From: Planctomycetaceae bacterium UBA4655
GTDB lineage: Bacteria; Planctomycetota; Planctomycetia; Pirellulales; UBA1268
Direction of reading: 5' to 3'
Length of the DNA stretch: 15,946 nucleotides
Assembly: GCA_002405515.1 (NCBI GenBank)
Contig: DHLZ01000204.1
Location: 1 to 15,946, forward strand
Position numbers and translations under genes: made by a program. Numbering within the stretch: the first letter of the stretch is position 1; each line of letters starts with the position of its first letter. The notes beneath the pieces were generated by a model that was given only the letters and a program-made list of their open reading frames with translations, searched no databases and had not been told where the DNA came from. Shown here one piece after another: positions 1,145 to 15,826 of the stretch.

Positions 1145-1708
1145 TCAGACCGTCAGGTGCGTCACCGCCACGAACCTCGGATCGGAACGGATCGGGTCGA
1201 AATCCGGTTCGATCTGGGTCAGGTCGCGAAACCGCTTGTCGATCGAGATCGCCTTCGTGAGGTGCTCGATCGCCGCCTGCACGTCACCGCCGAGCGAGAG
1301 GTAGCACGACAGATTGTAGTGGAGGATCGGCTCATCGGGCGAGGCGACCAGGCCCTGCTCGAGCACGTCGATCGCCTTCGGCAGCCGGCCGAGCCGCTTG
1401 AAACACCAGCCCAGGCCGAGCCACGCCTCGAGCCGCTTGGGATCGTTTTCCACGACGAGTTCGAACGGGCCGATGGCATCCGCCCAGTGGCCCATCGCCC
1501 GGAGGGCCTCCGCCTCGAGCAGTTTGGCGTCGGGCATCGACCGCGTCGGCTCGGGCAGTTCGTCGATCGTCTCGATCGCCCTGACGAGCAGCACCCGCGC
1601 GGTCTCGGGGGTGGGCCGGTCGCCATCGACCAATAGTTCCGCCAGCTCGACGTATCCAGAGGCCTGTCGCAGGATTGCCTGTCGGCGATTCCGGGTCATG
1701 GCGGTCAT
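1145..1708 (-). CDS. TPR-repeat protein (small, about 187 aa)
   Basis: TPR-like helical repeats, for example WLGLGWCFKRLGRLPKAIDVLEQGL and HYNLSCYLSLGGDVQAAIEHLTKAISIDKRF. An ATG at 1708 is preceded by AGGAG about 10 nt upstream on the minus strand. The ORF-track start at 1747 is a TTG, a less likely alternative. The gene is co-oriented with the aroE-like gene across a 64-bp gap and is probably in the same operon. Confidence 0.6.
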   Translation of the reverse strand: MTAMTRNRRQAILRQASGYVELAELLVDGDRPTPETARVLLVRAIETIDELPEPTRSMPDAKLLEAEALRAMGHWADAIGPFELVVENDPKRLEAWLGLGWCFKRLGRLPKAIDVLEQGLVASPDEPILHYNLSCYLSLGGDVQAAIEHLTKAISIDKRFRDLTQIEPDFDPIRSDPRFVAVTHLTV

Positions 1709-1747
1709 GGCAGTTCCGCTCCTGCTGAAAGCATTCGTCAGTTCCAA

Positions 1748-2006
1748 CCGTTCGACACGAGCGGCTCAGCCCGTGCGGCAGGATCTGCCGGAGTCTTCCT
1801 TGTTTCCCAGCACCTACATCATACCCAGGGTCCGGCGATTGCCGATTCTCCGGACCCCCGTCATACGGATTTTTCTACGGGATTCACGGTCGTTTGGGTC
1901 GCGCGGCGGGCGCCCCGGATTTTTTCCACGAAATGTCGGGCCGGATCGCCACTCTTCTCTTGGGCGGCCGGTTCGGCCGCGGCCGAACGATTCCGGGAGC
2001 CTGCCA
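1748..2006. promoter_or_regulatory. Divergent intergenic/promoter region between the TPR operon (-) and the membrane-protein gene (+), containing hairpins and palindromes
   Basis: GGGTCCGG(1828-1835)...CCGGACCC(1850-1857) forms a perfect 8-bp stem around a 14-nt loop that has an internal cgattgccgatt direct repeat. A near-palindrome ggttcggccgcggccgaacg (about 1967-1988) lies just 5' of the GGGAG RBS at 1994-1998. No promoter consensus could be assigned with confidence. Confidence 0.4.
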
Positions 2007-4268
2007 ATGTTGCGACTGACACTGCGGACGCTGCTCGCCTGGCTCGACGGCGTTCTTTCGGCGGATGAGGCCGATGCCTTCGCCGCGAAGCTCTCTGCCA
2101 GCGGATCGGCCCGGGTGCTCGTCGATCGTATCCGGGCGGTCGTCGCCCATCCCGGGCTCGACTCGCCCAAGGTGGTCGGCAAGGGCCTCGGCGCGGACGC
2201 CAATACCGTCGCCGAATACCTCACCAACTCGCTGCCGGCCGAGGCGGTCGCGGCGTTCGAAATGGTCTGCATCGAGTCCGACGTCCACCTCGCGGAGGTG
2301 GCGTCGTGCCACAGGACGCTCGTGGAGGCCCGCAACTCCCCGCGGGTTTTCGAGCCGCCGGAACCCCATGAGCTTGAACGACTGCTCGCTGCGACGGGCG
2401 GCCTTGCCAGCGGCGCGATCGGCTCGGAACGGTCAAAAGCGAAGCCGGCGGCGGCTTCGCCCGCGGCACCGTCTTCCAGGGCGGCTTCGCCAGCGGCATC
2501 GTTGCCAAAAACGCCGTCACCCGCGGCGGCGTCAACCACGATGAAGGGCTCCAAGACGTCGCCGGTGGCCTGGGCGTCGTTGATTGCGGCGGTGCTCCTG
2601 CTGGGAGCGCTCGCGGGAACGCTTGCCTGGAGGCTCATGCCGAATGAAACCGGCGGAGCGGTGCCAAAAAACAAGGACGCCGTCGCCCTTCGAGAATCGC
2701 CGGCTCCCGCGCCGGTGCCGCCGGCCCCGGCAGACCCGGCCGTGGAAGCGATCCCTGTAGTTTCGCCGGAGCCGGAGCCATCGCTTCCAGCGAAGGAAAA
2801 CGCGGGCCCGAAGCAGGATCTGAAACGGGACGACGCACTCGTCTCGCCGCCGCCGCGCGAAACTGATGCCTCCGTCGCGGCAGTCGGGGCGGAGCCCGCA
2901 CCGGAGCCCGCACCGGACGCTCCGCAGCCGTCGGCCGGCCGCGTGCCCGGGGGCGATGCGCTTGCGATCGGAGCGACCATCCGGCCGCCCGCCACGATTC
3001 CGAAGCAGCCCGCGCCGAACGATCCCAAACCGGCCGATCCTGCACGGAAAGAATCGGGTCCGGCAACACTGCCGGCGAGGAACGACGGGTCGGCGTTTGC
3101 GATCGTCGGCGTCGCCCCGCTTTTCCTGCAACGCATCGGAGATGCCGGCGGTCCGGCCGACTGGAAGGTCGTCGCACCACAGTCGCCGCTTTCCGCATCG
3201 ACCGACCTGCTCGTGCCGGAGGGCTTTTTTCCAACGTGGGCGGTCGGGAAGGCGACGATCCGCGTGATCGGTCCGGCCCGCGTGGTGGTCCGGCCGCGGA
3301 AGGATGCCGCCGCGGAGATCGAGCTCGTCTTTGGACGGGCGATTGTTGGCGGAATCGAGGCCGGGCGACCGATCGCGTTCGTGGCCGGCGATCTTTCGGG
3401 GCGGCTCGACGCCGGCGATCCGATCGGGCTGGAGGTGCGGTTCGATCGACCGTTCGGCAGTGATCCGGAGGCCGTGCCGTCGGCGGCCGTCGGCTCGATT
3501 GCGTTTCCCGAGGGGGGGAGGCTCACGTTCGAGCCCGGGGCCGCCGTCGCTGTTGAGGATGGGCTCATCCGCCCCGACGGCTCGGTCGCGACCGGTGTCG
3601 TGGTGACGGGCCGCGGGGAGGCATCCCGAGGCCTTCCGGATTGGCTGGCGTCGCCGTCCGCCCCACGGCTTCTCGATCGCCTCGCCGCCGAAGCGGTTGC
3701 CCGGAGCCTCGCGACGGCTCCGACGCCTGAAGCCCTCGAGCGGCTGCTCGGGGACAACCGTCTCGAGAATCGCTCCGCCGCCGCCGCGACGCTCGCGGTC
3801 ATGGGCCGGTACGAGCCGCTCGCGGACCTGCTCGCGGAGGAGCAGCAGGGCCTGCGGCTGCCGGCGCGGGCCTGGGAGGCCCTGGAGCAATCGACGGTTC
3901 CACTCGCCCTCGCCCGAGGGCCGACGTCGGCGGGCAGTCTGCTCGCGGCCTTCGAATCGGTCGTCCCGCCGAACGACCGGGATCTCGTGCGGCGGCTGGT
4001 CGTCGGCCTGTCGGGCCAGTCGCTCGCCGAAGGGGGCGACGCGGTCCTGGTCGCCGCCCTCGAACACCCCGTGCTCCTCGTCCGCCGCCTGGCAGCGTCA
4101 CGGCTGCTCGGGGCGGTTCGCCCGGCCGCGGCCGACCGTCTGCGGTACCGGCCGGACGGTCCTCCGGCAGCCCGCGCCGAAGCCGTGAAATGGTGGCGGT
4201 CGCAGCTCGAGAAGGGGCGGATTCGCGGGGGAGCGGAGGGAGGTCTGTCGAACGCCGAAGGGGAGTGA
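2007..4268 (+). CDS. Hypothetical single-pass membrane protein (754 aa) with an anti-sigma-factor-like architecture
   Basis: ATG at 2007 with GGGAG 8 nt upstream. The 1398-2006 part of the long ORF-track entry overlaps the TPR gene antisense and is treated as non-coding. The protein has an N-terminal soluble domain of about 130 aa. A hydrophobic segment follows (VAWASLIAAVLLLGALAGTLAWRL). After it comes a long Pro/Ala-rich linker (PAPAPVPPAPADP...EPAPEPAPDAP...). A beta-rich region resembling a FecR-type domain follows, by eye. C-terminal HEAT-like repeats include LLGDNRLENRSAAAATLAVMG and VAALEHPVLLVRRLAASRLLG. GC3 bias runs throughout. Confidence 0.65.
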   Translation: MLRLTLRTLLAWLDGVLSADEADAFAAKLSASGSARVLVDRIRAVVAHPGLDSPKVVGKGLGADANTVAEYLTNSLPAEAVAAFEMVCIESDVHLAEVASCHRTLVEARNSPRVFEPPEPHELERLLAATGGLASGAIGSERSKAKPAAASPAAPSSRAASPAASLPKTPSPAAASTTMKGSKTSPVAWASLIAAVLLLGALAGTLAWRLMPNETGGAVPKNKDAVALRESPAPAPVPPAPADPAVEAIPVVSPEPEPSLPAKENAGPKQDLKRDDALVSPPPRETDASVAAVGAEPAPEPAPDAPQPSAGRVPGGDALAIGATIRPPATIPKQPAPNDPKPADPARKESGPATLPARNDGSAFAIVGVAPLFLQRIGDAGGPADWKVVAPQSPLSASTDLLVPEGFFPTWAVGKATIRVIGPARVVVRPRKDAAAEIELVFGRAIVGGIEAGRPIAFVAGDLSGRLDAGDPIGLEVRFDRPFGSDPEAVPSAAVGSIAFPEGGRLTFEPGAAVAVEDGLIRPDGSVATGVVVTGRGEASRGLPDWLASPSAPRLLDRLAAEAVARSLATAPTPEALERLLGDNRLENRSAAAATLAVMGRYEPLADLLAEEQQGLRLPARAWEALEQSTVPLALARGPTSAGSLLAAFESVVPPNDRDLVRRLVVGLSGQSLAEGGDAVLVAALEHPVLLVRRLAASRLLGAVRPAAADRLRYRPDGPPAARAEAVKWWRSQLEKGRIRGGAEGGLSNAEGE

Positions 4269-4281
4269 TATGCTCCCCGCC

Positions 4282-4602
4282 ATGCAAATCAACGTCTCAA
4301 CTCGACACGGGCATTTGAGCCCGGCATCTCAGTCCAAGATCAGCTCGAAGGTCTTCCGCCTGAAGCGGTATTTCGACCGCCTGACGGCTCTGAACGTCAC
4401 GGTGGACCTCGAGAATCCGTCGCTGCCGCTGGTGGAGATCATCGCCTCCGCCGAGCACATGCACGACATGGTGGGCCACGAGGTGTCGGCCGATCTTTGG
4501 CGGAGCGTCGACGGCGCGGTTCAGAAACTGGAACAGCAACTCAGGAAGCACAAGGAGAAGGTCCGCGACCACAAGCACGTCCAGAACACGAAGCGTTCCT
4601 GA
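4282..4602 (+). CDS. hpf: Ribosome hibernation promoting factor (short HPF/YhbH/RaiA family)
   Basis: MQINVSTRHG...KVFRLKRYFDRLTALNVTVDLE...ASAEHMHDMV...AVQKLEQQLRKHKEK matches the conserved HPF fold pattern MQlnItG....E..f.KlE+yfdri..v.V.l......A.d.Y.AID.l.dkL.RQL.KHK. An in-frame ATG at 4270 is an alternative start. A GGGGAG motif lies at 4260-4265. The gene starts 13 nt after the stop of the upstream gene. Confidence 0.85.
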   Translation: MQINVSTRHGHLSPASQSKISSKVFRLKRYFDRLTALNVTVDLENPSLPLVEIIASAEHMHDMVGHEVSADLWRSVDGAVQKLEQQLRKHKEKVRDHKHVQNTKRS

Positions 4603-4636: not shown

Positions 4637-5113
4637 ATGAAGTTTTCCGATTTTGTGGCGGCGGATGCGATTCGTTCGAGCGTGAAGGCCCGAACGAAAG
4701 AAGGCGTGATCCGGGAGATGGCGACCGCCCTCGTCGAGGCGGGGAAGATTCCCGCCGGCGACATGGAGGGCATCGTCAAGGCGATCATGAAGCGGGAGGA
4801 TCTCGGCAGCACCGGGATCGGCCGCGGCGTCGCCGTCCCCCACACGAAGCACCCGAGCGTGAGCCGGCTGGTCGGCACCGTGGCCGTGAGCCGCGAGGGG
4901 ATCGATTTCGAGAGCCTCGACGGCGAGCCTGTGCAGTTGTTCTTCCTGCTGGTTTCGCCGCCGGATCGGCCGGGCGACCATCTGCGGGCGCTCGAGAACA
5001 TCTCGAGGCAGCTTCGCGACGACTCGTTTTGTGCAACGCTCAAGGCGGCACCCGCCGCGACCGACATCCGGCACCTGCTGGAGGAGGCCGACAGTCATGG
5101 GCTCGTTTCTTGA
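4637..5113 (+). CDS. ptsN: PTS EIIA-Ntr-type (fructose/nitrogen family IIA) regulatory protein
   Basis: 158 aa. Conserved region GIGRGVAVPHTKH carries the phosphorylatable His loop, GIAIPH-like. The length and layout (...MKREDLGSTGIG...VQLFFLLVSP) are typical of PtsN. It sits immediately after hpf, as in canonical rpoN-hpf-ptsN clusters. Confidence 0.85.
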   Translation: MKFSDFVAADAIRSSVKARTKEGVIREMATALVEAGKIPAGDMEGIVKAIMKREDLGSTGIGRGVAVPHTKHPSVSRLVGTVAVSREGIDFESLDGEPVQLFFLLVSPPDRPGDHLRALENISRQLRDDSFCATLKAAPAATDIRHLLEEADSHGLVS

Positions 5114-5162
5114 TACAAGTGAATGAATTGGCGGATTTGCGTGACGTGGTTTGGCAAGCGTG

Positions 5163-5441
5163 ATGTCGGAACGGACCGTGGTTCGTCAGGTCGTGGTGGG
5201 CATGCGGCAGGGGCTTCACGCCCGGCCGGCGGACATGCTTGCGCGCGAGGCGAGGAAGTGGCAGTCGCGGATCGAACTCGTGGCGGGCTCGCAGCGGGCC
5301 GACGGCAAGAGCATCCTCGAGGTGCTCACCCTGGCGGCCGAGGCGGGAACGTACGTCGTGATCGAGGCGACCGGGCCCGATGCCGATGAGGCGATCGACG
5401 CCATCGGCGGGCTCTTCGAGCGGAATTTCGACGAAGACTGA
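5163..5441 (+). CDS. ptsH: Phosphocarrier protein HPr/NPr
   Basis: The GLHARPA active-site His motif is present. A downstream ...RADGKSILEVL... segment has the Ser46-like GKS, consistent with HprK-regulated HPr. About 92 aa from the ATG at 5163. The ORF track extends to a TTG at 5151 and there is a GTG at 5160. No strong SD. Confidence 0.85.
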   Translation: MSERTVVRQVVVGMRQGLHARPADMLAREARKWQSRIELVAGSQRADGKSILEVLTLAAEAGTYVVIEATGPDADEAIDAIGGLFERNFDED

Positions 5442-5732: not shown

Positions 5733-7472
5733 ATGATCAAACTTCAGGGAATCGCGGTCTCGTCCGGCGTCACGATCGGCGAGGCGCTCGTGCTCGACGC
5801 AGAGGGCTTTCGGATCCCTCGGCGGTTCGTCGCCCGGTCGGCCGTGGACACCGAACTCGAGCGGCTCTCCACGGCCATCGGCGACACCACCCGCGAGATC
5901 GAGCGCAACCGCGACGCCATCCGCGCGGAGCTGGGTCAGCAGTACGCCGCCATCTTCGACGCCCACCTCGCGATGCTTCACGACGAGCGGCTCCAGGCCG
6001 AACTCGTCAGCGCGGTCCGTGACAAGAACCTCTGGCCGGAATACGCGGTCAGCCGCACGCTCCGCCGCTACGCGAAGGCCTTCCAGAATCTCGACAACCA
6101 CATCGCCCAGCGGGCCCACGACATCTACGACATCGAGAAGAGCCTGCTGCGGAACCTGCTCGGCCAGCGGAGCGAGACGCTCGCGGCCGTCTCCCAGCCG
6201 GTGATCGTGCTCGCCCACAACCTCACCCCGAGCGAGACCGCGAAGCTCGACCGGCGGTTCGTCCAGGGATTCGCGACGGAGCTCGGCGGGCCCGGCAGCC
6301 ATACCGCGATCGTGGCCGAAGGTCTCGAAATCCCGGCGGTGGTCGGGATCGGGCCGTTCTTGAGCGACGTCTCGGGCGGGGAGCCCGTGATCCTCGACGG
6401 CAACCAGGGGGTCGTGATCCTGCAGCCCGACGAGGAGACGATCGCCAGGTATCGGCTCGAGGTCGAGGCGGCACGAACGGCGGCCGTGAACCTCGGGCGG
6501 CTCCGCGACCTTCCCGCCGAGACGATCGACGGCGTCCGGATCCGGATCCACGGCAACATCGAGTTTCCGAACGAGGTCGAGCAGTGCATCCGCCGCGGCT
6601 GCGACGGCATCGGCCTGTACCGCACCGAGTTTCTCTACCTCACGAGCCCCCGGGAGCCGACGGAAGAGGACCACTTCGCCGCCTACAGCGAGGTCGTGAG
6701 GGCGATGGGCGGCAAGCCGGTGGTGATCCGCACGCTCGACCTGGGCGCCGACAAGATGCTCACCGAGACGACGCCCGAGGAGGAGAGGAATCCGTGCCTC
6801 GGCCTGCGGAGCATCCGACTGTCGCTGCGGCAGCTGCCTATGTTCCGGACGCAGTTGCGGGCGATCCTGCGGGCGAGCGCCCTCGGCGACGTGCGGGTGA
6901 TGTTTCCGCTCATCTCGACGATCGTCGAATTGCGTCAGGCGCGGATGGTGCTGGCCGACGTCATGGAAGACCTCGCCGAGCACGGGATCGCGTTCAACCG
7001 CGACATGCAGGTCGGCATGATGGTGGAAACGCCGGCCGCCGCGGTCATGCTCGACACGTTCGTGGGGGACGTGGACTTCGTGTCGATCGGCACGAACGAC
7101 CTCATTCAATACACGTTGGCCGTGGACCGTGGCAACAAGGAGGTCGCGGACCTCTACAACGCCTGCGACCCGGCTGTGCTGCGGCTCTTGAAGCGGTCGG
7201 TGCAGACCGCGAAGGAGGCGAACGTTCCCGCGAACGTGTGCGGTCAGATGAGCGGCAGCGTCATGTACACGCAGCTGCTTCTGGGCATGGGCCTCGAGCA
7301 GTTGAGCGTTCCCGCAAGCGCGATTCCCGAGGTGAAGCAGCTCTGTCGGAGCGTTTCGCTGGAGGAATGTCGCGCGATCGCGGAGAGGGTGCTGGAAATG
7401 GACAGCGCCCAGCAGGTCAAGTCGTTTTTACGGGATCAGTTGCGCCGCGTGCTCGCCCAGACTGTGGCGTAG
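5733..7472 (+). CDS. ptsI: Phosphoenolpyruvate-protein phosphotransferase (PTS Enzyme I), without an N-terminal GAF domain
   Basis: 579 aa. The N-terminus MIKLQGIAVSSGVTIGEALVL matches EI. GGPGSHTAIVAEGLEIPAVVG is the His-domain signature, and the C-terminal PEP-utilizer/TIM-barrel motifs are present (...GIGLYRTEFLYL...NDLIQYTLAVDR...). The protein starts directly with the EI N-domain, so it is not PtsP-type. Confidence 0.95.
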   Translation: MIKLQGIAVSSGVTIGEALVLDAEGFRIPRRFVARSAVDTELERLSTAIGDTTREIERNRDAIRAELGQQYAAIFDAHLAMLHDERLQAELVSAVRDKNLWPEYAVSRTLRRYAKAFQNLDNHIAQRAHDIYDIEKSLLRNLLGQRSETLAAVSQPVIVLAHNLTPSETAKLDRRFVQGFATELGGPGSHTAIVAEGLEIPAVVGIGPFLSDVSGGEPVILDGNQGVVILQPDEETIARYRLEVEAARTAAVNLGRLRDLPAETIDGVRIRIHGNIEFPNEVEQCIRRGCDGIGLYRTEFLYLTSPREPTEEDHFAAYSEVVRAMGGKPVVIRTLDLGADKMLTETTPEEERNPCLGLRSIRLSLRQLPMFRTQLRAILRASALGDVRVMFPLISTIVELRQARMVLADVMEDLAEHGIAFNRDMQVGMMVETPAAAVMLDTFVGDVDFVSIGTNDLIQYTLAVDRGNKEVADLYNACDPAVLRLLKRSVQTAKEANVPANVCGQMSGSVMYTQLLLGMGLEQLSVPASAIPEVKQLCRSVSLEECRAIAERVLEMDSAQQVKSFLRDQLRRVLAQTVA

Positions 7473-7518: not shown

Positions 7519-9123
7519 ATGAAACAGGAAATGCTCATCAACGTGTCGCAGCCGGAGGAATGCCGGATCGCGATCATGGAAGACGGTGTGCTCGAGGAGC
7601 TCTACGTGGAGCGGACGAGCGCCGACAACTACGTCGGCAACATCTACAAGGGCCGGATCGTCAACATCGAGCCCTCGATCCAGGCGGCGTTCGTCGATTT
7701 CGGCGTCGGCCGCAACGGCTTTCTCCACATCAGCGACGTGGAGCCGCAGTACTACCGTCAGGGCGGCCTCGATCCCGACAAGGCGTTCGACCTGCCGGAG
7801 CCGGCGGGCAAGGGAGGAGACGACTCGCAGGGGGCCACGAAGACGCCGCCCCGCCGCCGGGCCCGCCTTGGCGACCGGCCGCGGGTGAAGCCGCCGATCC
7901 AGGACGTCCTCCGCCGGGGCGACGAGGTGCTCGTGCAGGTGATCAAGGAGGGCTTCGGCACGAAGGGGCCGACGCTTTCCACGTACATCTCGATCCCGGG
8001 CCGCTACCTCGTGCTCATGCCGCCGCTCGGGCGGGTCGGCATCTCGAAGAAGATCGACGACGAGCAGGATCGCCGCCTCCTTCGCGACATCATGCTGGAG
8101 CTGAAGCCGCCGAAGGGAGTGGGGTTCGTCGTGCGGACGGCCGGCACCACCCGGACGAAGCAGGAGATGGCCCGCGACATGGCCTATCTGCTGCGGCTCT
8201 GGAAGAGCATCGTGCGGCGGATGAGGAAATACTCCGCCCCGATCGACATCTACCAGGAAAGCGACATGATCATCCGCACGATCCGTGACATGTTCACGGA
8301 GAACGTGGGGAGGATCCTCATCGACGAGCCGGCCGCCTACGAGCGTGCCCGCGAGTTCCTCGAACTCGTCATGCCGCGGTACGTGAGCCGGCTGCAGCTC
8401 TATGAGGGCAAGGAGCCGCTCTTCCACCGCTACGGCCTGGAGGAGGAGATCGGCCGGATGTATCAGCGGAAGGTTCCGCTCAAGGGGGGCGGCTCGATCG
8501 TGATCGACCAGACGGAAGCCCTCGTCGCGATCGACGTCAATTCGGGCAGCTTCCGGACGGAGCAGTCGGCCGAGGAGAACGCCTATCAGATGAACCTCAT
8601 CGCCGCGAAGGAGATCGCCCGACAGCTGCGGCTGCGGGACTTGGGCGGCGTGATCGTCAACGACTTCATCGACATGCGGAAGGAGAAGTACCGCCGCGGG
8701 GTCGAGAAGGCGCTCCACGACGCGATGAAGCGGGACCGCGCCCGGACGAAGGTGCTCCGCACGAGCCCCTTCGGCCTGATCGAGATGACCCGCCAGCGGA
8801 TCAGGCCTTCGCTCCGCAAGAGCATCTTCCGCGACTGCCCCACCTGCAACGGCACGGGCACGGTGAAGACGGCGGAGAGCATGGCGATCGAGGTGATGCG
8901 GACGCTCCAGCTTTCGAGCGCCCGCGACGACATCACGAAGCTCGACATCTCGGTGCACGACGACGTCGCCACCTGGATCAACAACAAGAAGCGTCGGGAG
9001 ATGGCCCACTTCGAGGACACGACCCACATCCAGCTTCATGTCGTCGGGAAGGACGGCGTGTCGCCGGAGCATCTCGTCTTCGAGGCAAGGGACTCCGCCG
9101 GTCGGCAGGTGCGGTTTCCGTAG
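7519..9123 (+). CDS. rng: Ribonuclease G/E family endoribonuclease (RNase G-sized, 534 aa)
   Basis: MLINVSQPEECRIAIMEDGVLEELYVER...NIYKGRIVNIEPSIQAAFVDFGVGRNGFLHISD is the S1/RNase E-G catalytic N-terminus. The DNase-I-like region is present. The Zn-link CPTCNGTGTV is present. GGAGAA RBS lies before the ATG at 7519. Confidence 0.9.
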   Translation: MKQEMLINVSQPEECRIAIMEDGVLEELYVERTSADNYVGNIYKGRIVNIEPSIQAAFVDFGVGRNGFLHISDVEPQYYRQGGLDPDKAFDLPEPAGKGGDDSQGATKTPPRRRARLGDRPRVKPPIQDVLRRGDEVLVQVIKEGFGTKGPTLSTYISIPGRYLVLMPPLGRVGISKKIDDEQDRRLLRDIMLELKPPKGVGFVVRTAGTTRTKQEMARDMAYLLRLWKSIVRRMRKYSAPIDIYQESDMIIRTIRDMFTENVGRILIDEPAAYERAREFLELVMPRYVSRLQLYEGKEPLFHRYGLEEEIGRMYQRKVPLKGGGSIVIDQTEALVAIDVNSGSFRTEQSAEENAYQMNLIAAKEIARQLRLRDLGGVIVNDFIDMRKEKYRRGVEKALHDAMKRDRARTKVLRTSPFGLIEMTRQRIRPSLRKSIFRDCPTCNGTGTVKTAESMAIEVMRTLQLSSARDDITKLDISVHDDVATWINNKKRREMAHFEDTTHIQLHVVGKDGVSPEHLVFEARDSAGRQVRFP

Positions 9124-9179
9124 GACCGGCGGCCGGACGGCCCTACGCCCAAAACTCCCGGGAATTTCAGGGCTGCGCT

Positions 9180-9198
9180 CGACCTGCAGGGCAGGTCG
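9180..9198 (+). terminator. Hairpin CGACCTGC-agg-GCAGGTCG downstream of rng, containing CCTGCAGG and related to the window-end repeat family; possible terminator
   Basis: Perfect 8-bp stem with a 3-nt loop, 57 nt after the rng stop. It is followed by gggtatcctttcc, which is only a weak U-tract. A TTGACG -35-like hexamer lies at about 9220, ahead of rplU. Confidence 0.35.
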
Positions 9199-9257
9199 GG
9201 GTATCCTTTCCTGACTGTATTGACGATTTCCGCCCCCGATCTTTTTGGACTCCAGTC

Positions 9258-9653
9258 ATGGCCAAGGCATCTTCCGAACCCACCACCACCACCGCCGCCA
9301 GCACGAGGGGCTCCGCCGCCAGCATGAAGGGCGCGGGCCACGAGTACGCCGTCATCGTCGATGGCGGCCGGCAGTACACCGTGCAGGAGGGGCAGGAGCT
9401 CGAGATCGACTTCCGGCATCTTCCGGCCGGCAGCGAGGTCGTGTTCGACGAGGTGCTCGCGGTGAGCCGCGCGGGCAAGCTCACGCTGGGAGCCCCGAAG
9501 GTGAAGGGGGCAACGGTGAAGGCGAAGGTGGTCGGAACCGAGCAGGGCGAAAAGATCTACGTGCAGAAGTTCGCCCGTCGGAAGAACTACCGCCGCCGCA
9601 CCGGCCACCGCTCGCTCCACACCCGCGTGAAGATCGCGGGTATTTCCGGCTGA
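9258..9653 (+). CDS. rplU: 50S ribosomal protein L21 with an N-terminal extension of about 27 aa
   Basis: YAVIVDGGRQYTVQEGQELEIDF...VVFDEVLAV...GEKIYVQKFARRKNYRRRTGHRSLHTRVKIAGISG is collinear with E. coli L21, MYAVFQSGGKQHRVSEGQ...[28 protein letters not shown]. The extension MAKASSEPTTTTAASTRGSAASMKGAGHE has GC3-biased codons. An alternative internal ATG lies at 9324. Confidence 0.9.
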   Translation: MAKASSEPTTTTAASTRGSAASMKGAGHEYAVIVDGGRQYTVQEGQELEIDFRHLPAGSEVVFDEVLAVSRAGKLTLGAPKVKGATVKAKVVGTEQGEKIYVQKFARRKNYRRRTGHRSLHTRVKIAGISG

Positions 9654-9818
9654 TCAAGCGATCGGCGGGCTCATGGGTGCGGGCCGCGGGTATCTCCGGC
9701 TGATCGAGCGATCGGCGGGCTCATGGGTGCGGGCCGCGGGTATTTCCGGCTGATCAAGCGATCGGCGGGCTCATGGGTGCGGGCCGCGGGTATCTCCGGC
9801 TGATCGAGCGATCGGCGG
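9636..9818 (+). repeat. 50-bp tandem repeat, about 3.65 copies (units 9636-9685, 9686-9735, 9736-9785, partial 9786-9818), beginning within the last codons and stop of rplU
   Basis: Unit gcgggtat(t/c)tccggctgatc(a/g)agcgatcggcgggctcatgggtgcgggcc. Units alternate between two variants (tt..a / tc..g), giving a 100-bp super-unit in about 1.8 copies. The first unit encodes AGISG-stop of L21. Each unit has an imperfect inverted repeat ccggctgatc...gatcggcgg. The array sits between convergent rplU and the flotillin gene. Confidence 0.95.
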
Positions 9819-9819
9819 A

Positions 9820-11883
9820 TCAAGCGGTTGGCGGGGCAGGCGGACTGGTGATGGCCTGTGGTGACACCTCGGCCCTCTGCTGGCGGACGAGCTGGGCGAG
9901 CAGCACCTGCACGAGCCCGCCGCCCTCGACGCCGTCGCCCGCCCCGCCGACGATGATGTCGGGCGTGATCTTCAGCCCGGCCGTCGATATCGCCTTCATG
10001 ACCTCGACGGTGGTGACGCCCTGGGCGGTGAGCGCGTCCACCTGGTCGCGGTAGGCCTTGGCCTGCGCCTCTCCCTTCGACTGCACGACGCTCGCCTCGG
10101 CATCGCCGATCTGCTTCGTCTTCGAGGCCTCGGCCTCGGCGATCAGTTGCACCTTCGCGGCGTCGCCCCTCGCTCGCTCCTCCACCTGCCGGGCCTCGTG
10201 CTGCGCCACCTTGATGCCCGCCTCGGCCGAGATGATCTTCACCTGAGCGTCGGCCTCGGCCCTCGTCTTCTCGAACTCGATCCGCCGCTGCTCCGCGTCC
10301 TTCTTCGCGTCGTACATCGACTTTTCCTGCTCGGCGAGGTTCTTCTGCTGGGTGGTCTTCATGAGGGCCTCGGGCAGGTGGATGTTGGTGATCATCACCG
10401 ACACCACCTCCACCCGATACTTCGCGAGATCCTGCCGGACCGCCTCCTCGGCCGCCTTCTGCTCCTCGGCGCGATTCTGCTGGTAGGCGATGGCCGGCGA
10501 TCGCGAGACCTGGGCCCGGAAGATGCCGTCGATCTGGGGATGGATGACGTTCGTCTCGAGTTCCTCCACGGAGCCGATCTTCTGCACGACGTACGGCGCG
10601 TTCTCCGGCAGGATCCGGTATTGGCAGCGGACTTCCACCTTCATCTCGAAGCCGTCGTGCGACACGACCTGGAACGGGTCGAATCCCGTGATCTCCCGCG
10701 ACTTGGCCTTCTCGGCGCTCCAGTCGACCGACCGGGTCGTCGTGGGGATGATGATCACCGAGTAGGCGAGGGGATTGATGTTGTAGGCGCCCGGGCCGAG
10801 CACCTCCCGTTGGATGCCGCGGAAGCCCTTCGGCACGACGTGCCTCGTCCGCGAACCGTCGGGATGGGGGCCGTCGGTCTCCGGCTCGAACTCCGACGGA
10901 TCCTTTCCGATGTTGGAGATGAGCACGGCCACCTCGCCCTGGCGGACGAGCGCCTGCTTCCTCTTCGAAACGGCGAACATGTACGGATTGATGTAGTAGG
11001 TGCCCGGCGTCAGGATGTTTTCCTGCGGACCCCTTTTTCCACCCTTGTCGAGGAACAGCTGTCCGTCCTGGAAGCTGTTGACGTCCTCGGGCGTGTGCAC
11101 CACGACGTCGCTGCGGGCCATCGACAGGCCGTCGCGGGCGTCAACGATGCCGATCTCGTTCTCGCCGATGCGGATGGCGTCGCTGATCTCGACCTTGAAG
11201 ATCTCGGTGTTGATGTTGTAGGTGCCCGGCCTGAGGAAATCGATCTGCGGCCCCTTCTGCCCGCCGTTCTTCAGGAAGGCCTCCGCCTTCTGGAAATTGT
11301 CGTGGTCGGGGACGCTTCGGCCGAGCAGCTGGCCTGGCGCGAGCGGGGCGCCGTCGGCCGCCGTGATCACGCCGATCTGCCCCTCCGGCACGACCGTCTT
11401 CACGATCTTCGTCACCTTGAAAAGCCCCGGGTGGATCTTGAACGTGCCGTTGGTCAGGAACCGAAGCTGCTTGCCGCGGATGCCGCCGTGCGCGAGAAAC
11501 TCCACCGGGAGCTGGAAGTTGTCGTGCTGCTGGCCTGCGGGATCGTCGGCGAAGATGCGGCCGGCGGGAAGGGCGGCGCCGTCGGTCGCCTCCACGATGC
11601 CGAGCTCGTTGGCGCCGATCGTGATGAACCGCGGCTTCGCGACGACCCGCGTGATCGGCCAGAGGATGAAGTGGAGTCCCGGCGCGAGATACTCCGCCTT
11701 GAATCCCACCTCGCCCTGGAGCGCGAAGACCCGTCCGGGCGAGAGCTCCTTGCCGATGAACCTCCGCTCGAGAACGGCGATCCGATCCGAGCCGACGTTG
11801 ACGAGGAAGCGGGAGAGCAGGACGAGTCCCGCGACGACGCCGAAAAGTGAGGCGACGAGAACGACGATCTGCTGTTCGGTCAT
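9820..11883 (-). CDS. Flotillin-like SPFH/band-7 membrane protein (687 aa) with four extra tandem ~70-aa repeats
   Basis: ATG at 11883 with AGGAAAG 4 nt upstream. The N-terminal TM segment is IVVLVASLFGVVAGLVLL. The C-terminal half is a canonical SPFH core plus a flotillin EA-rich coiled coil (AEQEKSMYDAKKDAEQRRIEFEKTRAEADAQVKIISAEAGIKVAQHEARQ...LIAEAEASKTKQIGDAEA...). Between them sit four repeats, each showing G(I/V)(V/I)....DG..........D.NxFQ...FL..GG.+G.Q...L.PGTY.IN...F.V. The part of the ORF-track entry upstream of 11883 is an Arg-rich extension overlapping the ubiD 3' end and is not called. Confidence 0.85.
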   Translation of the reverse strand: MTEQQIVVLVASLFGVVAGLVLLSRFLVNVGSDRIAVLERRFIGKELSPGRVFALQGEVGFKAEYLAPGLHFILWPITRVVAKPRFITIGANELGIVEATDGAALPAGRIFADDPAGQQHDNFQLPVEFLAHGGIRGKQLRFLTNGTFKIHPGLFKVTKIVKTVVPEGQIGVITAADGAPLAPGQLLGRSVPDHDNFQKAEAFLKNGGQKGPQIDFLRPGTYNINTEIFKVEISDAIRIGENEIGIVDARDGLSMARSDVVVHTPEDVNSFQDGQLFLDKGGKRGPQENILTPGTYYINPYMFAVSKRKQALVRQGEVAVLISNIGKDPSEFEPETDGPHPDGSRTRHVVPKGFRGIQREVLGPGAYNINPLAYSVIIIPTTTRSVDWSAEKAKSREITGFDPFQVVSHDGFEMKVEVRCQYRILPENAPYVVQKIGSVEELETNVIHPQIDGIFRAQVSRSPAIAYQQNRAEEQKAAEEAVRQDLAKYRVEVVSVMITNIHLPEALMKTTQQKNLAEQEKSMYDAKKDAEQRRIEFEKTRAEADAQVKIISAEAGIKVAQHEARQVEERARGDAAKVQLIAEAEASKTKQIGDAEASVVQSKGEAQAKAYRDQVDALTAQGVTTVEVMKAISTAGLKITPDIIVGGAGDGVEGGGLVQVLLAQLVRQQRAEVSPQAITSPPAPPTA

Positions 11884-11980
11884 GACTTTCCTTGCTCGGA
11901 GTGGCTGCCGTGCGGCCACGGCACGGACGTCGGAGGATACTACCTCCGCGGGGTGCCCGTTGCACGGCAGGCATCGGCCT

Positions 11981-13879
11981 TCAGCCGAGGAGCCCGGCGA
12001 GCGGGCCCCCGCGGACGCAGAGGGCATCGACCTTCGCCGTGACCGCCGGGTCTTCCTCGACCGGCGGAGCGTGGTGGGGCTTGAGCCGGGCGTCGATGAC
12101 GAGCGGGCCCTCGCAGCCCCAGTGCTTCTGACGGACCCTCGCCGCGACACCGTGGACGTCGGCCGCGGGGTTCGACCGCGTGAACGTCACCCAGAGAAAG
12201 TTCTCGAGGCTCGCGGCCGAAAAGCCGGAGTCGTCCACGACCACGATGAGCGGCCATGGACGCAGCGGGTTGTCCGCGTGGATCGCATCGCAGAGCCGTT
12301 GGATCCCGGCCGACCAGGGGGAGGCGGCCGCGAGGCCGGCGAGCGACGTGGCGGCAGGGGCCGCGTCGTCCGAGGCGAGCGTCGGCGCGGGATCGATCCT
12401 CGGGCCCTCGATCGCGACGACGCCCGGCAGGCAGACCCTCGGGTTGCGGAAGCCGTCGGGGAGGGCGATGCCGGCGGGCAGTTCCCGCGAGAGGCTGCGG
12501 ATCGCCGGCCCACGGGCGGCCACCACGAGCTTCGAGCCGGCGTTGAGCCCGCTGCCGGAGTAGTCGAGCGTGTCGATCGTGGTCTCGGTGTGGAAGTGGC
12601 AGTCGCGCCGCCAGTCGGCCCGCGACAGCACGTGCGCGAGGAAGGGCCGGATGTCGTGGGCATCGAGGCCCGGCGCATCCCCCCCCGACACGATGAAGAG
12701 ATACTTCGCGAGCGACAGCTGCCCTTGGCCGAGGATCGCGGAGGCCTGCGTGAGCAGCTCGGCCGGGCGGTTCGACCGCTGCCAGGGCAGGTAGCGCTCG
12801 CTCCCGACGGCAAGCAGAAGCGGATGCACTCCCGACGCATCGACGGCATGAACGCTCCGCACGCCAGGCAGCACCGTCGGGATCACCGGTCCGGTCAGCT
12901 CGTGCACGAGCCAGCCGAAGAGCGTGTCTTCCTGCGGCGGGCGGCCGACCACCGTCACCGGCCAGATCGCCCCCTCGCGGTGCCAGACCCGCTCGACCTG
13001 CATCACCGGAAAATCGTGCCGTTTGGCATAGTAGCCGAGGTGGTCGCCGAACGGCCCCTCCGGCTTCGTCGTTCCCGGCTGCACCGTCCCCTCGATCACG
13101 AAATCGGCGTCGGCATAGATCGCGGGTCGTCCTCGCCTCGCGATCATCGGGATGCGGTGGCCCGCAAGCGCCCCGGCGAAGAGCAGCTCGGAGAGCCCCT
13201 CGGGCAGCGGCATGACGGCGGCGACGGCCATCGCCGGCGAGCCGCCGACGAACACGTTCACCTTCAGTGGCTCGCCGCGGGCGAGCGCCGCGGCATGATG
13301 GACGCCGATGCCGCGGTGGAGCTGGTAGTGGAGGCCGATCTCGCGGTCGGGCAGGTAGTCGTTGCCCGCCAGCTGCACCCGGTACATCCCGAGGTTCGAG
13401 TGTTTCGTGCCCGGCCGGTCGGGGTCTTCGGTGTAGACCGCCGGGAGCGTGACGAACGGACCGCCGTCGCCGGGCCAGCCCGTCACCTTGGGCAGCTGAG
13501 AAAGGGGGATCGAGTGGGCGACCGCCGGGCCCGATTTCACGCGACGCGGCAGCATCGAGATCGCGTCGATCGGGCTTCGCCAGTACCGCCACGGCTTCTT
13601 CAATGCTTCAGCCGGGTCGATCTTGAGCTCCACGAGCCGCTTCACCCGATCGAGCGTGCGGTGGAAGATCCGCTCGATCCGCTTTTGCGTGCCGTAGAGG
13701 TTCACGAGCACGGGGAAGGCCGTGCCAGCCGGTCGCGAGAAGAGCACCGCCGGCCCGCCGACCCGGAACAGCCGCCGCTGGATCTCCGCGATTTCGAGGT
13801 GCGGATCGACCGGATGGTCGACGACCACGAGTTCCCCCTCGCGGGCGAGCCGATCGACGCAGGATCGAAGCGATCGCAT
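11981..13879 (-). CDS. ubiD: UbiD-family (de)carboxylase; 3-octaprenyl-4-hydroxybenzoate carboxy-lyase / menaquinone MqnL-like
   Basis: [44 protein letters not shown] is collinear with the E. coli UbiD N-terminus, [49 protein letters not shown]. Full length is about 632 aa. The ATG at 13879 is the first Met compatible with the family N-terminus. The 13880-13984 extension in the ORF track lies inside the palindrome. Confidence 0.9.
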   Translation of the reverse strand: [632 protein letters not shown]

Positions 13880-13965
13880 AAAAAGGTGCCAGCCACCAAA
13901 TCTGGGTAAAATACCTTCGGCTTTATAGACATCTTGCCCAGATTTGGTGGCTGGCACCTTTTTTT
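13880..13965. repeat. Perfect 27-bp inverted repeat (13880-13906 / 13937-13963; AAAAAGGTGCCAGCCACCAAATCTGGG) around a 30-nt AT-rich spacer, with A5/T7 tails
   Basis: Read directly. Right arm CCCAGATTTGGTGGCTGGCACCTTTTT is the exact reverse complement of the left arm. The spacer taaaataccttcggctttatagacatcttg contains TATAGA/TATAAA-like hexamers in both orientations. The element fills the whole divergent intergenic space, 0 nt from the ubiD start codon and 13 nt from the osmC GTG. Confidence 0.9.
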
Positions 13966-13977
13966 GAAAGGACGCAG

Positions 13978-14388
13978 GTGGCACGAATCACGACGACGTA
14001 CGAGGGGAAGCTCCGCTGTCGGGCCCAGCACGGGCCTGCGGGCGAGACGGTGCTCACTGACACCCCGGCCGACGGCCAGGGCCGCAGCGAGGCGTTTTCG
14101 CCGACCGACCTCGTGGGAGTGGCCCTCGGGGCGTGCATGATGACGATCATCGGCATCGTCGCCGAGCGGCACGGGCTCGCGCTGGCCGGCATGAAGGCCG
14201 ACACCGTCAAGGAGATGAGCAAGGAGCCGCCGCGGCGGATCACTGTGCTCCGCACGACGCTCACGATCCCGCTCCCGCCGGATCATCCGAAGCGACACCT
14301 CATCGAGCAGGCGGCGCTCACCTGCCCCGTCCACAAGAGCCTCGCCGCCGGCATCGACGCCGCCGTCGACTTCGTCTGGACGGGCTGA
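13978..14388 (+). CDS. OsmC/Ohr-family protein (organic hydroperoxide resistance / OsmC-like)
   Basis: 136 aa. ...EAFSPTDLVGVALGACMMTIIGIVAERHG... and the ...LTCPVHKSL... Cys pair are typical of the OsmC/Ohr fold. GTG start with AAAGGA 6 nt upstream. Confidence 0.8.
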   Translation: MARITTTYEGKLRCRAQHGPAGETVLTDTPADGQGRSEAFSPTDLVGVALGACMMTIIGIVAERHGLALAGMKADTVKEMSKEPPRRITVLRTTLTIPLPPDHPKRHLIEQAALTCPVHKSLAAGIDAAVDFVWTG

Positions 14389-14408: not shown

Positions 14409-15728
14409 ATGGCCGACCTCTTCGCCGCGTCGCGTGCCGCCAACCTCGCGCGGGCCGCGCCGCTCGCCGCGAGAATGAGGCCGCGGCGGCTCGCCGACTA
14501 CGTCGGCCAGGGGAAGGTCGTGGGGGAGGGGATGCTGCTGCGGCGGCTCATCGAGGCCGACCGGCTCGGGTCGGTGATCCTCTACGGTCCGCCGGGCGTC
14601 GGCAAGACGACGCTTGCGGAGATCGTCGCCACGGAAACGCGTCGCCGGTTCGTCGAGCTGTCGGCCACGTCGTCGGGCGTGAAGGAACTCCGCGACGTGC
14701 TCGACGCGGCCCGGCGGCGGCTCGAGGACGATGGGCAGCGGACCTGCCTCTTCATCGACGAGATCCACCGCTTCAACAAGTCGCAGCAGGACGTGCTCCT
14801 GCCCGACGTCGAGAGCGGGGTGATCGCGCTGGTGGGTGCGACGACCCACAATCCCTTCTTCGCGCTCACCTCGGCGCTCGTCAGCCGCAGCCGCATCTTC
14901 GAACTCGAGCCGCTCTCGGCGGACGACGTCGCCGAGATCCTCAGGCGTGCCCTGGCCGACCGGGAGCACGGCTTCGGCGCGGAACCGATCGAGATGGCCC
15001 CCGAGGCCCTGGCATTCCTCGTGGAAACCTCCGACGGCGACGCCCGGAGGGCGCTCGGCGGGCTCGAGGTGGGCGTGCTTTCGACGGCCGAGCGGCCGCT
15101 GCGGTTCACGCTGGCGCTCGCCCGGGAGAGCGTGCAGCGGAAGGCTGTCGCCTACGACGCCGGCGACACGCACTACGACTGCGCGAGCGCCCTCATCAAG
15201 AGCATCCGTGGCAGCGACGCCGACGCCGGCCTCTACTGGCTCGCGCGGATGCTCGAGGGGGGAGAGGACGTGCGGTTCCTCGCCCGCAGGCTCGTCATCC
15301 TCGCGAGCGAGGACGTCGGCAACGCCGACCCGCGGGCGCTGCTCCTGGCGGTGGCGGCGATGCAGGCGGTCGAGTTCGTCGGGCTGCCGGAATGCCAGCT
15401 CGCGCTCTCGCAGGCGGTGACGTATCTCGCGCTTGCGGCCAAGAGCAACGCCTGCACGACGGCGATCGCCGCCGCCCGATCCGACGTCCGCGAACAGCGG
15501 GTTATCCCCGTTCCCAGGCACCTGCAAGACAAGCACTACGCAGGCGCCAAGCGGCTCGGCCACGGCCAGGGCTACGAGTACTCCCACGACGCCCCCGACG
15601 GGATCGCCGCGCAGGACTACCTCGGCGTCGAAAAGCGGTATTACGAGCCCACCGACCGCGGCCACGAGCGGGAGCTTGCCGAGCGGCTCGCCGAGATCCG
15701 CCGGCGTCTTGGATCGCGGGAGGCGTGA
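14409..15728 (+). CDS. rarA: Replication-associated recombination protein A (RarA/MgsA AAA+ ATPase)
   Basis: RPRRLADYVGQGKVVGEGMLLRRLIEADRLGSVILYGPPGVGKTTLAEIVA... carries Walker A. ...CLFIDEIHRFNKSQQDVLLP... carries Walker B and sensor. The C-terminal MgsA domain is present. The 14133-14408 part of the ORF-track entry overlaps osmC out of frame and is not called. Confidence 0.9.
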   Translation: MADLFAASRAANLARAAPLAARMRPRRLADYVGQGKVVGEGMLLRRLIEADRLGSVILYGPPGVGKTTLAEIVATETRRRFVELSATSSGVKELRDVLDAARRRLEDDGQRTCLFIDEIHRFNKSQQDVLLPDVESGVIALVGATTHNPFFALTSALVSRSRIFELEPLSADDVAEILRRALADREHGFGAEPIEMAPEALAFLVETSDGDARRALGGLEVGVLSTAERPLRFTLALARESVQRKAVAYDAGDTHYDCASALIKSIRGSDADAGLYWLARMLEGGEDVRFLARRLVILASEDVGNADPRALLLAVAAMQAVEFVGLPECQLALSQAVTYLALAAKSNACTTAIAAARSDVREQRVIPVPRHLQDKHYAGAKRLGHGQGYEYSHDAPDGIAAQDYLGVEKRYYEPTDRGHERELAERLAEIRRRLGSREA

Positions 15729-15754
15729 GCCCCGGGCTACGGCGCCCGCACGAC

Positions 15755-15826
15755 ATACGGAAGCCCGAGGCGCGAGTTTCCCTGCAGGCGTTTGCGCAGA
15801 ACGCCCGGAAGCCCGAGGCGCGAGCC
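15755..15826. repeat. Inverted (reverse-complement) copies of the window-start repeat family: 36-nt match at 15755-15790 and 19-nt match at 15806-15824, downstream of rarA
   Basis: The reverse complement of 15755-15790 is cgcctgcagggaaactcgcgcctcgggcttccgtat, identical to positions 77-112 of the start array. A second block cggaagcccgaggcgcgag recurs 15 nt later with a different spacer. The plus strand here also shares gcgcagaacg with 136-144. Confidence 0.85.

Follow-up and report, generated by a model that had tools for sequence, protein, structure and literature searches.

The window analysed here comprises the 15,946 nt of contig DHLZ01000204.1 (Planctomycetaceae bacterium UBA4655, GCA_002405515.1) and contains, at the 3' end of rplU, the gene of ribosomal protein L21, a tandem array of 50-bp units that embeds the rplU stop codon. 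The array is a minisatellite-type locus with a variable number of tandem repeats (VNTR), notable for fossil codons of the ancestral L21 tail, for the concerted evolution of its units, for a probable conversion of the coding tail and for its position in what seems to be a recurrent hotspot of such arrays. With a probability of about 0.68, we regard it as a locus-specific minisatellite with slippage and conversion dynamics, whose reiteration is near-neutral. All sequence sources were short-read metagenome assemblies, and copy numbers are given as assembled.

Anatomy of the array and origin of its unit

Tandem Repeats Finder (TRF) reported a period of 50 bp at 9635-9818 with 3.7 copies, 95% matches, no indels and a score of 340. 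In a repeat search, the blocks 9635-9718 and 9735-9818 (84 nt each) were 100% identical, and the block at an offset of 50 was 95% identical. An exact direct repeat of 84 nt cannot have originated by chance. Counted from 9636, the order of the units is A, B, A, B (33 nt), which results in an exact 100-bp period with strict alternation of variant A (ATTTCC...TCAAGC) and variant B (ATCTCC...TCGAGC). TRF and the exact 84-nt repeats thereby confirm what the earlier note, made from the letters of the window, had described as a 50-bp array of 3.6 copies with strict A/B alternation and an embedded rplU stop. The gene and the units are arranged as follows:

9258-9653, + strand: rplU (ribosomal protein L21, 131 aa; Pfam PF00829, E=2.6e-29), whose stop TGA (9651-9653) lies in unit 1
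9627-9653, + strand: coding copy of the 27-nt rplU tail (GTG AAG ATC GCG GGT ATT TCC GGC TGA), by outgroup comparison the source of the repeated tail
9636-9685, + strand: unit 1, variant A (ATTTCC...TCAAGC), found by TRF and repeat search; holds the real rplU stop
9686-9735, + strand: unit 2, variant B (ATCTCC...TCGAGC), from the repeat layout
9736-9785, + strand: unit 3, variant A, exactly equal to unit 1, from the repeat layout
9786-9818, + strand: unit 4, partial (33 nt), variant B, equal to the start of unit 2, from the repeat layout

Every unit lies in direct head-to-tail orientation, and alternating palindromes of the type known from repetitive extragenic palindromic (REP) sequences and bacterial interspersed mosaic elements (BIMEs) were not found. 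A CRISPR array was ruled out, as unique spacers are absent. A coding role was rejected as well, since the two open reading frames (ORFs) that cross the array (9245-9703 on the + strand and 9671-9823 on the - strand) matched no Pfam family. A role in frameshifting or read-through, based on the occurrence of TGA in all three frames, was dropped because this follows automatically from a period of 50 bp.

Unit 1 opens with the five terminal codons of rplU and the stop (gcg ggt att tcc ggc tga, 9636-9653). Aligned in register, the units share G(C/T)(G/A)RGTATYTCCGGCTGA at the 5' side and GTGCGG near the 3' end, and in the outgroups L006 and L095 (related loci are designated by L numbers) rplU ends with (GTG/ATC) CGG ATC GCG AGC ATC TCC GGC TGA. 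Since the shared GTGCGG matches this Arg-containing end, the unit comprises the nine codons with which the ancestral rplU ended (V R I A S I S G stop) and a 23-nt spacer; counted in this way, the array begins at 9627. The local duplication of the rplU 3' end proposed by the earlier note therefore stands, while its length of five codons has to be extended to nine, judged from the ancestral C-terminus. The internal units have the ancestral form GTG CGG nnn GCG GGT ATY TCC GGC TGA, and the coding copy starts with GTGAAG or GTGAAA. After the duplication, the coding copy changed from Arg (CGG) to Lys (AAG/AAA), and the internal GTGCGG is a fossil of the former tail.

A second difference concerns residue 128 of L21. 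In L003, L004, L094, L100 and L101 codon 128 of the coding copy is AGT (Ser), and most internal units carry GGT at this position, with the exception of unit 3 of L003 (GTT). The coding copy of the window and of L001 comprises GGT (Gly128), with unit 1 identical to unit 3. Among 24 aligned L21 proteins, Gly at this column is unique. The most economical reading is probably a gene conversion of an internal unit into rplU, by which Ser128 was replaced by Gly.

Relatives, copy number and concerted evolution

For comparison, 102 loci around rplU relatives were collected with flanks of up to 3-6 kb. Five related lineages have a period-50 array whose start falls on the same codons of rplU; the orthologous copy number there compares with 3.66 in the window and L001:

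L003 (GCA_964585575.1): about 95% nucleotide identity to the window, 3.5 copies
L004 / L005 (JGI): 94.5% identity in the neighbouring gene for a UbiD-family decarboxylase, about 2.4 copies (L004)
L094 (ENA): 1.9 copies
L100 (Logan): 93.9% identity, about 1.45 copies
L101: probable array; the contig stops 27 nt past the rplU stop

The array is absent from L093, L095, L006 and L008, and in about 60 more distant JGI loci the rplU tail does not recur downstream. Based on the presence in five relatives and the absence in distant loci, the array appears to have arisen once, in a small clade. The copy number differs between lineages from 1.45 to 3.66, as was to be expected from the VNTR-like locus suggested in the earlier note, and is equal in a strain-level pair of two genomes with about 99.9% identity. 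The record of L003 (L012 / CAZPEM010000009.1, GCA_964585575.1) is labelled 'uncultured Chitinophagaceae bacterium', yet its sequence shares about 95% identity with the window. Since the named homologues of the window L21 and of the flotillin-like protein encoded next to the array belong to Planctomycetota/Planctomycetaceae, this label looks wrong.

It is scarcely credible that the array is an assembly artefact, i.e. a single or other copy number that was mis-assembled from short reads. Such an error could be suspected, since every source is a short-read metagenome assembly, the 183-bp array exceeds a typical read, and unitigs as well as the contigs L002, L005 and L101 break within or shortly past unit 1. 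Against this stands contig DAIOCJ010000183.1 of the NCBI metagenome-assembled genome (MAG) GCA_036747375.1, which is 99.95% identical to the window over 7415 nt. Its 4 mismatches lie outside the array, which itself agrees with that of the window base for base; this second MAG thus shows 3.66 copies and not the single copy that the earlier note had named as the sign of an artefact. The identical flotillin protein is likewise recorded on two NCBI contigs. Orthologous arrays with lineage-specific units were obtained from four other projects and assemblers, which makes an artefact very unlikely, the A/B variants yield unique k-mers above 100 nt, and the T/C alternation of the units (see below) recurs in L003. 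A Logan unitig (k=31) breaks off after precisely the first unit of the array, which is what a real repeat should cause.

Within a genome, whole units showed an identity of 0.94, compared to 0.70 between genomes. For the 23-nt spacer part the identity was 0.94 within and 0.49 between genomes (range 0.26-0.74), while the rplU-tail part showed 0.91 in both comparisons. The flanks are much better conserved: UbiD shows 94.5-95.7% identity, the spacer between UbiD and OsmC 100% to L004 and 95% to L003, and the spacer between the RNase G gene and rplU 87% to L003. The units thus evolve in concert. At unit position 9, an alternation of T, C, T, C was determined for both the window and L003, and the four-unit layout is therefore older than the split of the two. 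Accordingly, the identity of units 1 and 3 and of units 2 and 4 results from later homogenisation, a process that acted on the 3' halves independently in the two genomes. The view of the earlier note that a 100-bp dimer was duplicated recently is half right: the layout predates the split from L003, whereas the exact identity is indeed of later origin.

The simplest model for these patterns is the following. One old 50-bp duplication would have copied the ancestral tail (GTG CGG ATC GCG AGY ATY TCC GGC TGA) together with the adjoining 23-nt spacer, in the promoter-free gap between the convergent genes rplU and UbiD. The rplU tails of 18-27 nt, placed at a spacing of 50 bp, would then serve as direct repeats, on which replication slippage or unequal recombination contracts and re-expands the array like an accordion. 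Short-tract gene conversion between the units would hold the period at 50 and homogenise them, the unconstrained spacer part would drift fast between genomes, and at times the conversion would reach the coding copy of rplU. The array is presumably transcribed as the 3' untranslated region of rplU; it would be tolerated because the gap contains nothing regulatory, and its reiteration is most likely near-neutral.

Several points weigh against this explanation. The period is exactly 50 in all five lineages, the copy numbers derived from short reads could be collapsed, and the change of Ser128 to Gly could be an ordinary point mutation. Independent arrays occur in the same spacer of other lineages, so that selection for reiteration is possible. 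Furthermore, the spacer is only 35-48% identical to that of L004/L100, compared to 74-79% at the third codon positions of rplU. A spacer that diverges much faster than third codon positions is not predicted by plain neutral concerted evolution, and the model is incomplete in this respect.

Stem-loops, recurrent arrays and alternative readings

The imperfect inverted repeat which the earlier note had marked in each unit (ccggctgatc / gatcggcgg) does fold:

9646-9668, + strand: stem-loop across the rplU stop (CCGGCUGAUC / AAGC / GAUCGGCGG), minimum free energy -13.9 kcal/mol; recurs at 9696-9718, 9746-9768 and 9796-9818

Since the offsets of the 3' arm vary between lineages and the 5' arm consists of unvarying coding sequence, the hairpin was judged by shuffle tests and not by covariation. 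With the rplU tail fixed, the hairpin of the window showed z=-0.57. For the array-bearing lineages (tail fixed, downstream 32 nt shuffled) z ranged from -0.8 to +0.7, so that their hairpins are not above chance, and the combined Z of -2.4 over nine lineages was due mainly to L008, which has no array. Every lineage has an arm complementary to CCGGCUGA, at differing offsets. By eye, no compensatory changes were seen between the units of the window and of L003 (e.g. at positions 34 and 48). Global RNA folds of the whole array from three lineages gave long-range pairing between units that was inconsistent between the lineages (z from -2.2 to -3.9) and were not used.

No U-tract terminator was detected at 9600-9850 on either strand, and a scan of 9000-12300 gave no sigma-70-like promoter within the array. 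Rfam showed no match in the whole window at the gathering threshold; a permissive search of 9100-9950 returned nothing credible, its sole sub-threshold match reaching 20 bits compared to a cutoff of 112 bits. The bidirectional terminator considered in the earlier note found no support, since a U-tract is missing on both strands and the hairpin does not exceed what shuffled spacers of high GC content give. Judged by predicted folding, the array may add stem-loops to the rplU 3' end, and none of these results argues for a need of their reiteration.

A TRF survey (period at least 25, score at least 90) of 449 kb of rplU-centred loci resulted in 18 array rows, 14 of them located at most 480 nt downstream of rplU. 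Arrays occurred in 9 of 43 rplU-downstream spacers, but in only 2 of the 176 spacers located elsewhere and in none of the 22 convergent ones away from rplU. The spacers were counted with a crude gene caller after removal of near-duplicate loci; since the lineages do not count as independent and the gene calls are approximate, the pattern is a lead only. Apart from the 50-bp family, the following arrays were found:

52-bp array: L016, L018, L030, L038 and L040, about 20 nt past the rplU stop
194-bp array: L056, rplU-UbiD spacer
44-bp array: L065, rplU-UbiD spacer
41-bp array: L091, rplU-UbiD spacer
short arrays: L093 (14 bp) and L073 (15 bp), rplU-UbiD spacer
15-nt array: L052, CGGCTGA unit, includes the rplU stop
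11-nt (11/22) array: L060, CGGGTTGA, includes the rplU stop

The 50-, 52-, 44-, 41- and 194-bp families are mutually unrelated. The overall pattern suggests that the 3' flank of rplU is a hotspot for tandem arrays, either mutational or selected. If the hotspot reflects selection, it would bear on transcription termination, of which little is known in Planctomycetota.

An alternative which is possible, though unlikely, is that the unit is a selected stem-loop module, whose several hairpins would act together as a terminator or insulator, or would keep 3' exonucleases off the monocistronic and highly expressed mRNA of rplU. Read-through into the convergent gene (UbiD or flotillin) would be prevented, and extra units would be kept for better function. 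A stop-spanning stem-loop is possible in every unit (-13.9 kcal/mol for the window, -9.8 for L003 and -16.9 for the last unit of L004), and array-less relatives have a hairpin at the rplU stop as well; in L008 the termini of rplU and UbiD pair with each other (-24.7 kcal/mol, z=-4). The unrelated 52-, 44- and 41-bp units of the same spacer also fold into hairpins, the enrichment of arrays described above points in the same direction, and a terminator-like hairpin at 9178-9200 suggests that rplU is its own transcription unit. However, the array lacks a U-tract terminator on either strand, the hairpins are at chance level when the spacer is shuffled, L094 has only a weak internal hairpin (-7.6 kcal/mol, z=+0.5), and the copy numbers from 1.45 to 3.66 show no apparent preferred value. 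A wider and likewise doubtful version is that the spacer as such is selected for reiterated stem-loops that would terminate or insulate the orphaned, highly expressed rplU opposite its convergent neighbour, a solution peculiar to this lineage, with the pseudo-termini acting as a conversion reservoir that rewrites the L21 C-terminus. It is based on at least five unrelated array origins (50, 52, 44, 41 and 194 bp) and on the stop-embedding arrays of 11-15 bp.

The other two alternatives concern the relation of the array to mobile or dispersed sequences. At the 3' side of the array, the window differs from its relatives by a single segment:

9816-11977, - strand: 2162-nt window-specific segment with the flotillin gene and its 5' region, missing in all five relatives with the array locus (blastn breakpoints against L003 and L100)
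9819-9835, + strand: extra spacer-like fragment ATCAAGCGGTTGGCGGG, by eye similar to unit positions 18-34 and best to the L003 version TCAAYCGGTTGGCGG
9820-11883, - strand: flotillin-like SPFH/Band-7 protein (PF01145), convergent, stop at 9820-9822 (Pfam; coding sequence from the gene call of the near-identical contig)

The homology to L003 runs to position 9815 and resumes at 11978, with 9 nt in L003 in place of the 2162 nt of the window. The same gap was found in L100, and the flotillin gene is also missing at the locus in L004, L094, L095 and L008. Based on this absence, the segment is most simply explained as an insertion in the lineage of the window. ATCGG stands at both of its edges, the fragment ATCAAGCGGTTGGCGGG supplies the last flotillin codons and the stop, and TRF reported a 16-bp mini-repeat at 9797-9834. 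The closest flotillin homologues are about 87% identical and lie in other contexts, the nucleotide similarity being confined to 9869-11826. The rearrangement boundary suspected in the earlier note is thus present, and the array marks a variable junction, without evidence of a dedicated integration system.

That the array acts as an att-like recombination or integration hotspot which captures genes, and through which the flotillin gene was inserted, is improbable. The segment starts exactly at the end of unit 4 with ATCGG on both sides, its first 17 nt resemble an L003-type unit spacer, flotillin homologues occur in unrelated contexts (72-78% identity to Bdellovibrio-like or Alphaproteobacteria-labelled proteins), and the genes upstream of rplU vary as well (TPR in L004, RNase G in the window). 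On the other hand, only a single event is seen, no integrase, transposase or cassette structure was found nearby, the 5-nt flanking repeat equally fits microhomology-mediated illegitimate recombination, and convergent spacers are generally permissive for insertions. Still more improbable is a unit that belongs to a dispersed family inserted beside rplU, similar to REP sequences or to mycobacterial interspersed repetitive units (MIRUs). For such a family speak a 48-bp repeat on the same contig (1-110 and 15747-15824), a related 14-mer directly after the L094 array, and the likeness to MIRUs, which are tandem intergenic units of 40-100 bp that overlap stop and start codons of the flanking genes (PMC12548453). 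Nevertheless, 27 of the 50 nt correspond to the ancestral rplU tail, which argues for a local origin, the 50-bp and 48-bp units have no similarity, and the convergent flanking genes make a translational coupling of the MIRU type impossible. Neither the 15.9-kb window nor 488 kb of related loci contain the non-coding 32 nt (TCAAGCGATCGGCGGGCTCATGGGTGCGGGCC) at a second site, in agreement with the local duplication of the rplU terminus, as opposed to a REP-like element, favoured in the earlier note. A scan of 185,579 species-representative genomes for two rplU tails 44-56 bp apart gave the orthologous locus of one relative as the sole planctomycete match, besides an unrelated array in a Holosporaceae MAG, and BLAST of the array against plasmid and phage sequences gave no match.

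Among known systems, the intergenic minisatellites and VNTR loci of bacteria, described as 'satellites in prokaryotes' (PMC6749651), come closest to the locus-specific minisatellite preferred here. The rplU array shares with them a non-coding gap filled by units that are tens of bp long and arranged head to tail, lineage-variable copies, homogenised units and breaks in short-read assemblies, and it shows the direct units of 10-100 bp, the variable copies and the higher identity within than between genomes by which this class is defined. It differs in that its unit demonstrably derives from the 3' terminus of a gene for an essential ribosomal protein, including the stop, keeps fossil codons and appears to feed back on the coding copy. 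MIRUs were reportedly described by Supply et al. in 1997 as tandem intergenic units of about 50 bp that overlap a stop codon in a high-GC bacterium, and in all these respects the rplU array is alike. MIRUs occur at tens of loci between co-directional genes and contain small ORFs that couple translation, whereas the rplU array was found at a single locus (window and 488 kb of relatives) between convergent genes, with a period that is no multiple of 3 and crossing ORFs without a family match. The REP palindromes of enterobacteria at the 3' side of genes, often between convergent genes, are said to stabilise the upstream mRNA (Newbury et al. in 1987). The rplU units are likewise palindromic and located 3' of a gene between convergent genes, but REPs are dispersed in hundreds of copies with alternating orientation inside their clusters, in contrast to direct units at one locus only. 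The tandem or I-shaped intrinsic terminators of high-GC bacteria resemble the array by a GC-rich stem-loop at the stop that is serially repeated past a highly expressed gene; they differ from it, since its predicted stems are at chance level and lack a U-tract.

The array represents a clean natural case of a minisatellite that was born from a gene's own 3' end, persists over species-level divergence and evolves in concert. It keeps fossil codons of the ancestral L21 tail and probably converts the coding copy of an essential gene (Ser128Gly). Furthermore, it offers a practical VNTR marker for strain typing in an uncultured freshwater planctomycete clade and serves as a warning that contigs assembled from short reads end or collapse here; L002, L005 and L101 end within or just past unit 1.

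Gene neighbourhood and further observations

The earlier note had expected rpmA (L27) directly downstream of rplU and took the array as its replacement. This could not be upheld, since a signature regular expression and tblastn with E. coli L27 found an L27 gene in 0 of the 102 rplU loci. The lack of rpmA at this place is thus characteristic of the lineage; it preceded the array and has no connection with it. Instead, tblastn placed a UbiD homologue on the downstream side of rplU in about 70 of the 102 loci, whether the array is present or not, and UbiD is convergent to rplU wherever gene calls existed. In L008 the two stops are only 22 nt apart and lie within one hairpin. The operon expectation is thereby corrected: rplU is not linked to rpmA here, and the missing linkage is no sign of a rearrangement caused by the array. 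For the L21 protein of the window 750 homologues were found, the closest of them with planctomycete labels. The other genes of the window are:

199-1080, - strand: shikimate dehydrogenase
1145-1747, - strand: TPR protein
1398-4268, + strand: large protein, no family
4270-4602, + strand: HPF/S30AE
4637-5113, + strand: PTS EIIA
5151-5441, + strand: HPr
5733-7472, + strand: PtsI
7519-9123, + strand: RNase E/G
11981-13828, - strand: UbiD-family decarboxylase, ancestral convergent neighbour of rplU (Pfam, tblastn)
13978-14388, + strand: OsmC
about 14409-15728, + strand: MgsA/RarA

Between RNase E/G and rplU, a terminator-like hairpin is followed by a T-rich tail at 9178-9200 (CTCGACCTGCAGGGCAGGTCGGG GTATCCTTTC), and this suggests that rplU may be transcribed separately, as its own unit. 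Upstream of rplU, the window has RNase G, L004 a TPR gene and L094 likewise a gene other than RNase G; both flanks of rplU were thus rearranged among close relatives. Within rplU, an in-frame 21-bp tandem duplication (CCGCCGCCAGCACGAGGGGCT / CCGCCGCCAGCATGAAGGGCG) is located at 9292-9332 in the N-terminal extension. It explains an insertion of 7 residues in L21 which was seen only in the window, P0001 and P0002, and represents a second slippage product within rplU. The invariant Met23, directly after this duplication, may be the real start codon.

The flotillin-like SPFH protein comprises 687 aa and is conserved to an unusual degree, with a full-length identity of 72-78% to homologues labelled as Bdellovibrio/Bdellovibrionaceae, Bacteriovoracaceae, Micavibrio and Alphaproteobacteria. 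Its neighbourhoods differ even among close planctomycete relatives, a pattern that suggests horizontal mobility of the single gene.

The Holosporaceae array (L011, JAISMS010000029.1, 3340-3540) has a period of 49 bp and was rejected as a relative of the unit, since it matches by a chance 14-mer (GTATTTCCGGCTGA) and is not located beside rplU. It is flanked by an ORF of 368 aa, by eye possibly RecF-like, and a convergent gene of 1106 aa. The repeat of 48-bp units in the window (CCTCGGGCTTCCGTATTCGGCACCTGTTCGCCTGCAGGGCAACTCGCG) comprises 2.3 copies at 1-110 and about 1.6 copies, inverted, at 15747-15824. Each lies directly 3' of a gene (shikimate dehydrogenase and MgsA, respectively) in the same orientation relative to that gene, and its 19-mer core CGGAAGCCCGAGGCGCGAG occurs 4 times, compared to 0.4 expected. 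It is probably a dispersed REP-like family that broke the assembly at the left end.

In the divergent spacer between UbiD and OsmC, an AT-rich inverted repeat of 36 nt (13877-13966; 92% complementary, 18-nt loop) was found in a genome with 68% GC. This spacer (149 nt) has 100% identity to its L004 counterpart and 95% to that of L003, although the flanking genes show about 95% identity, and the changes of L003 are not compensatory. The inverted repeat is likely a conserved operator or promoter element.

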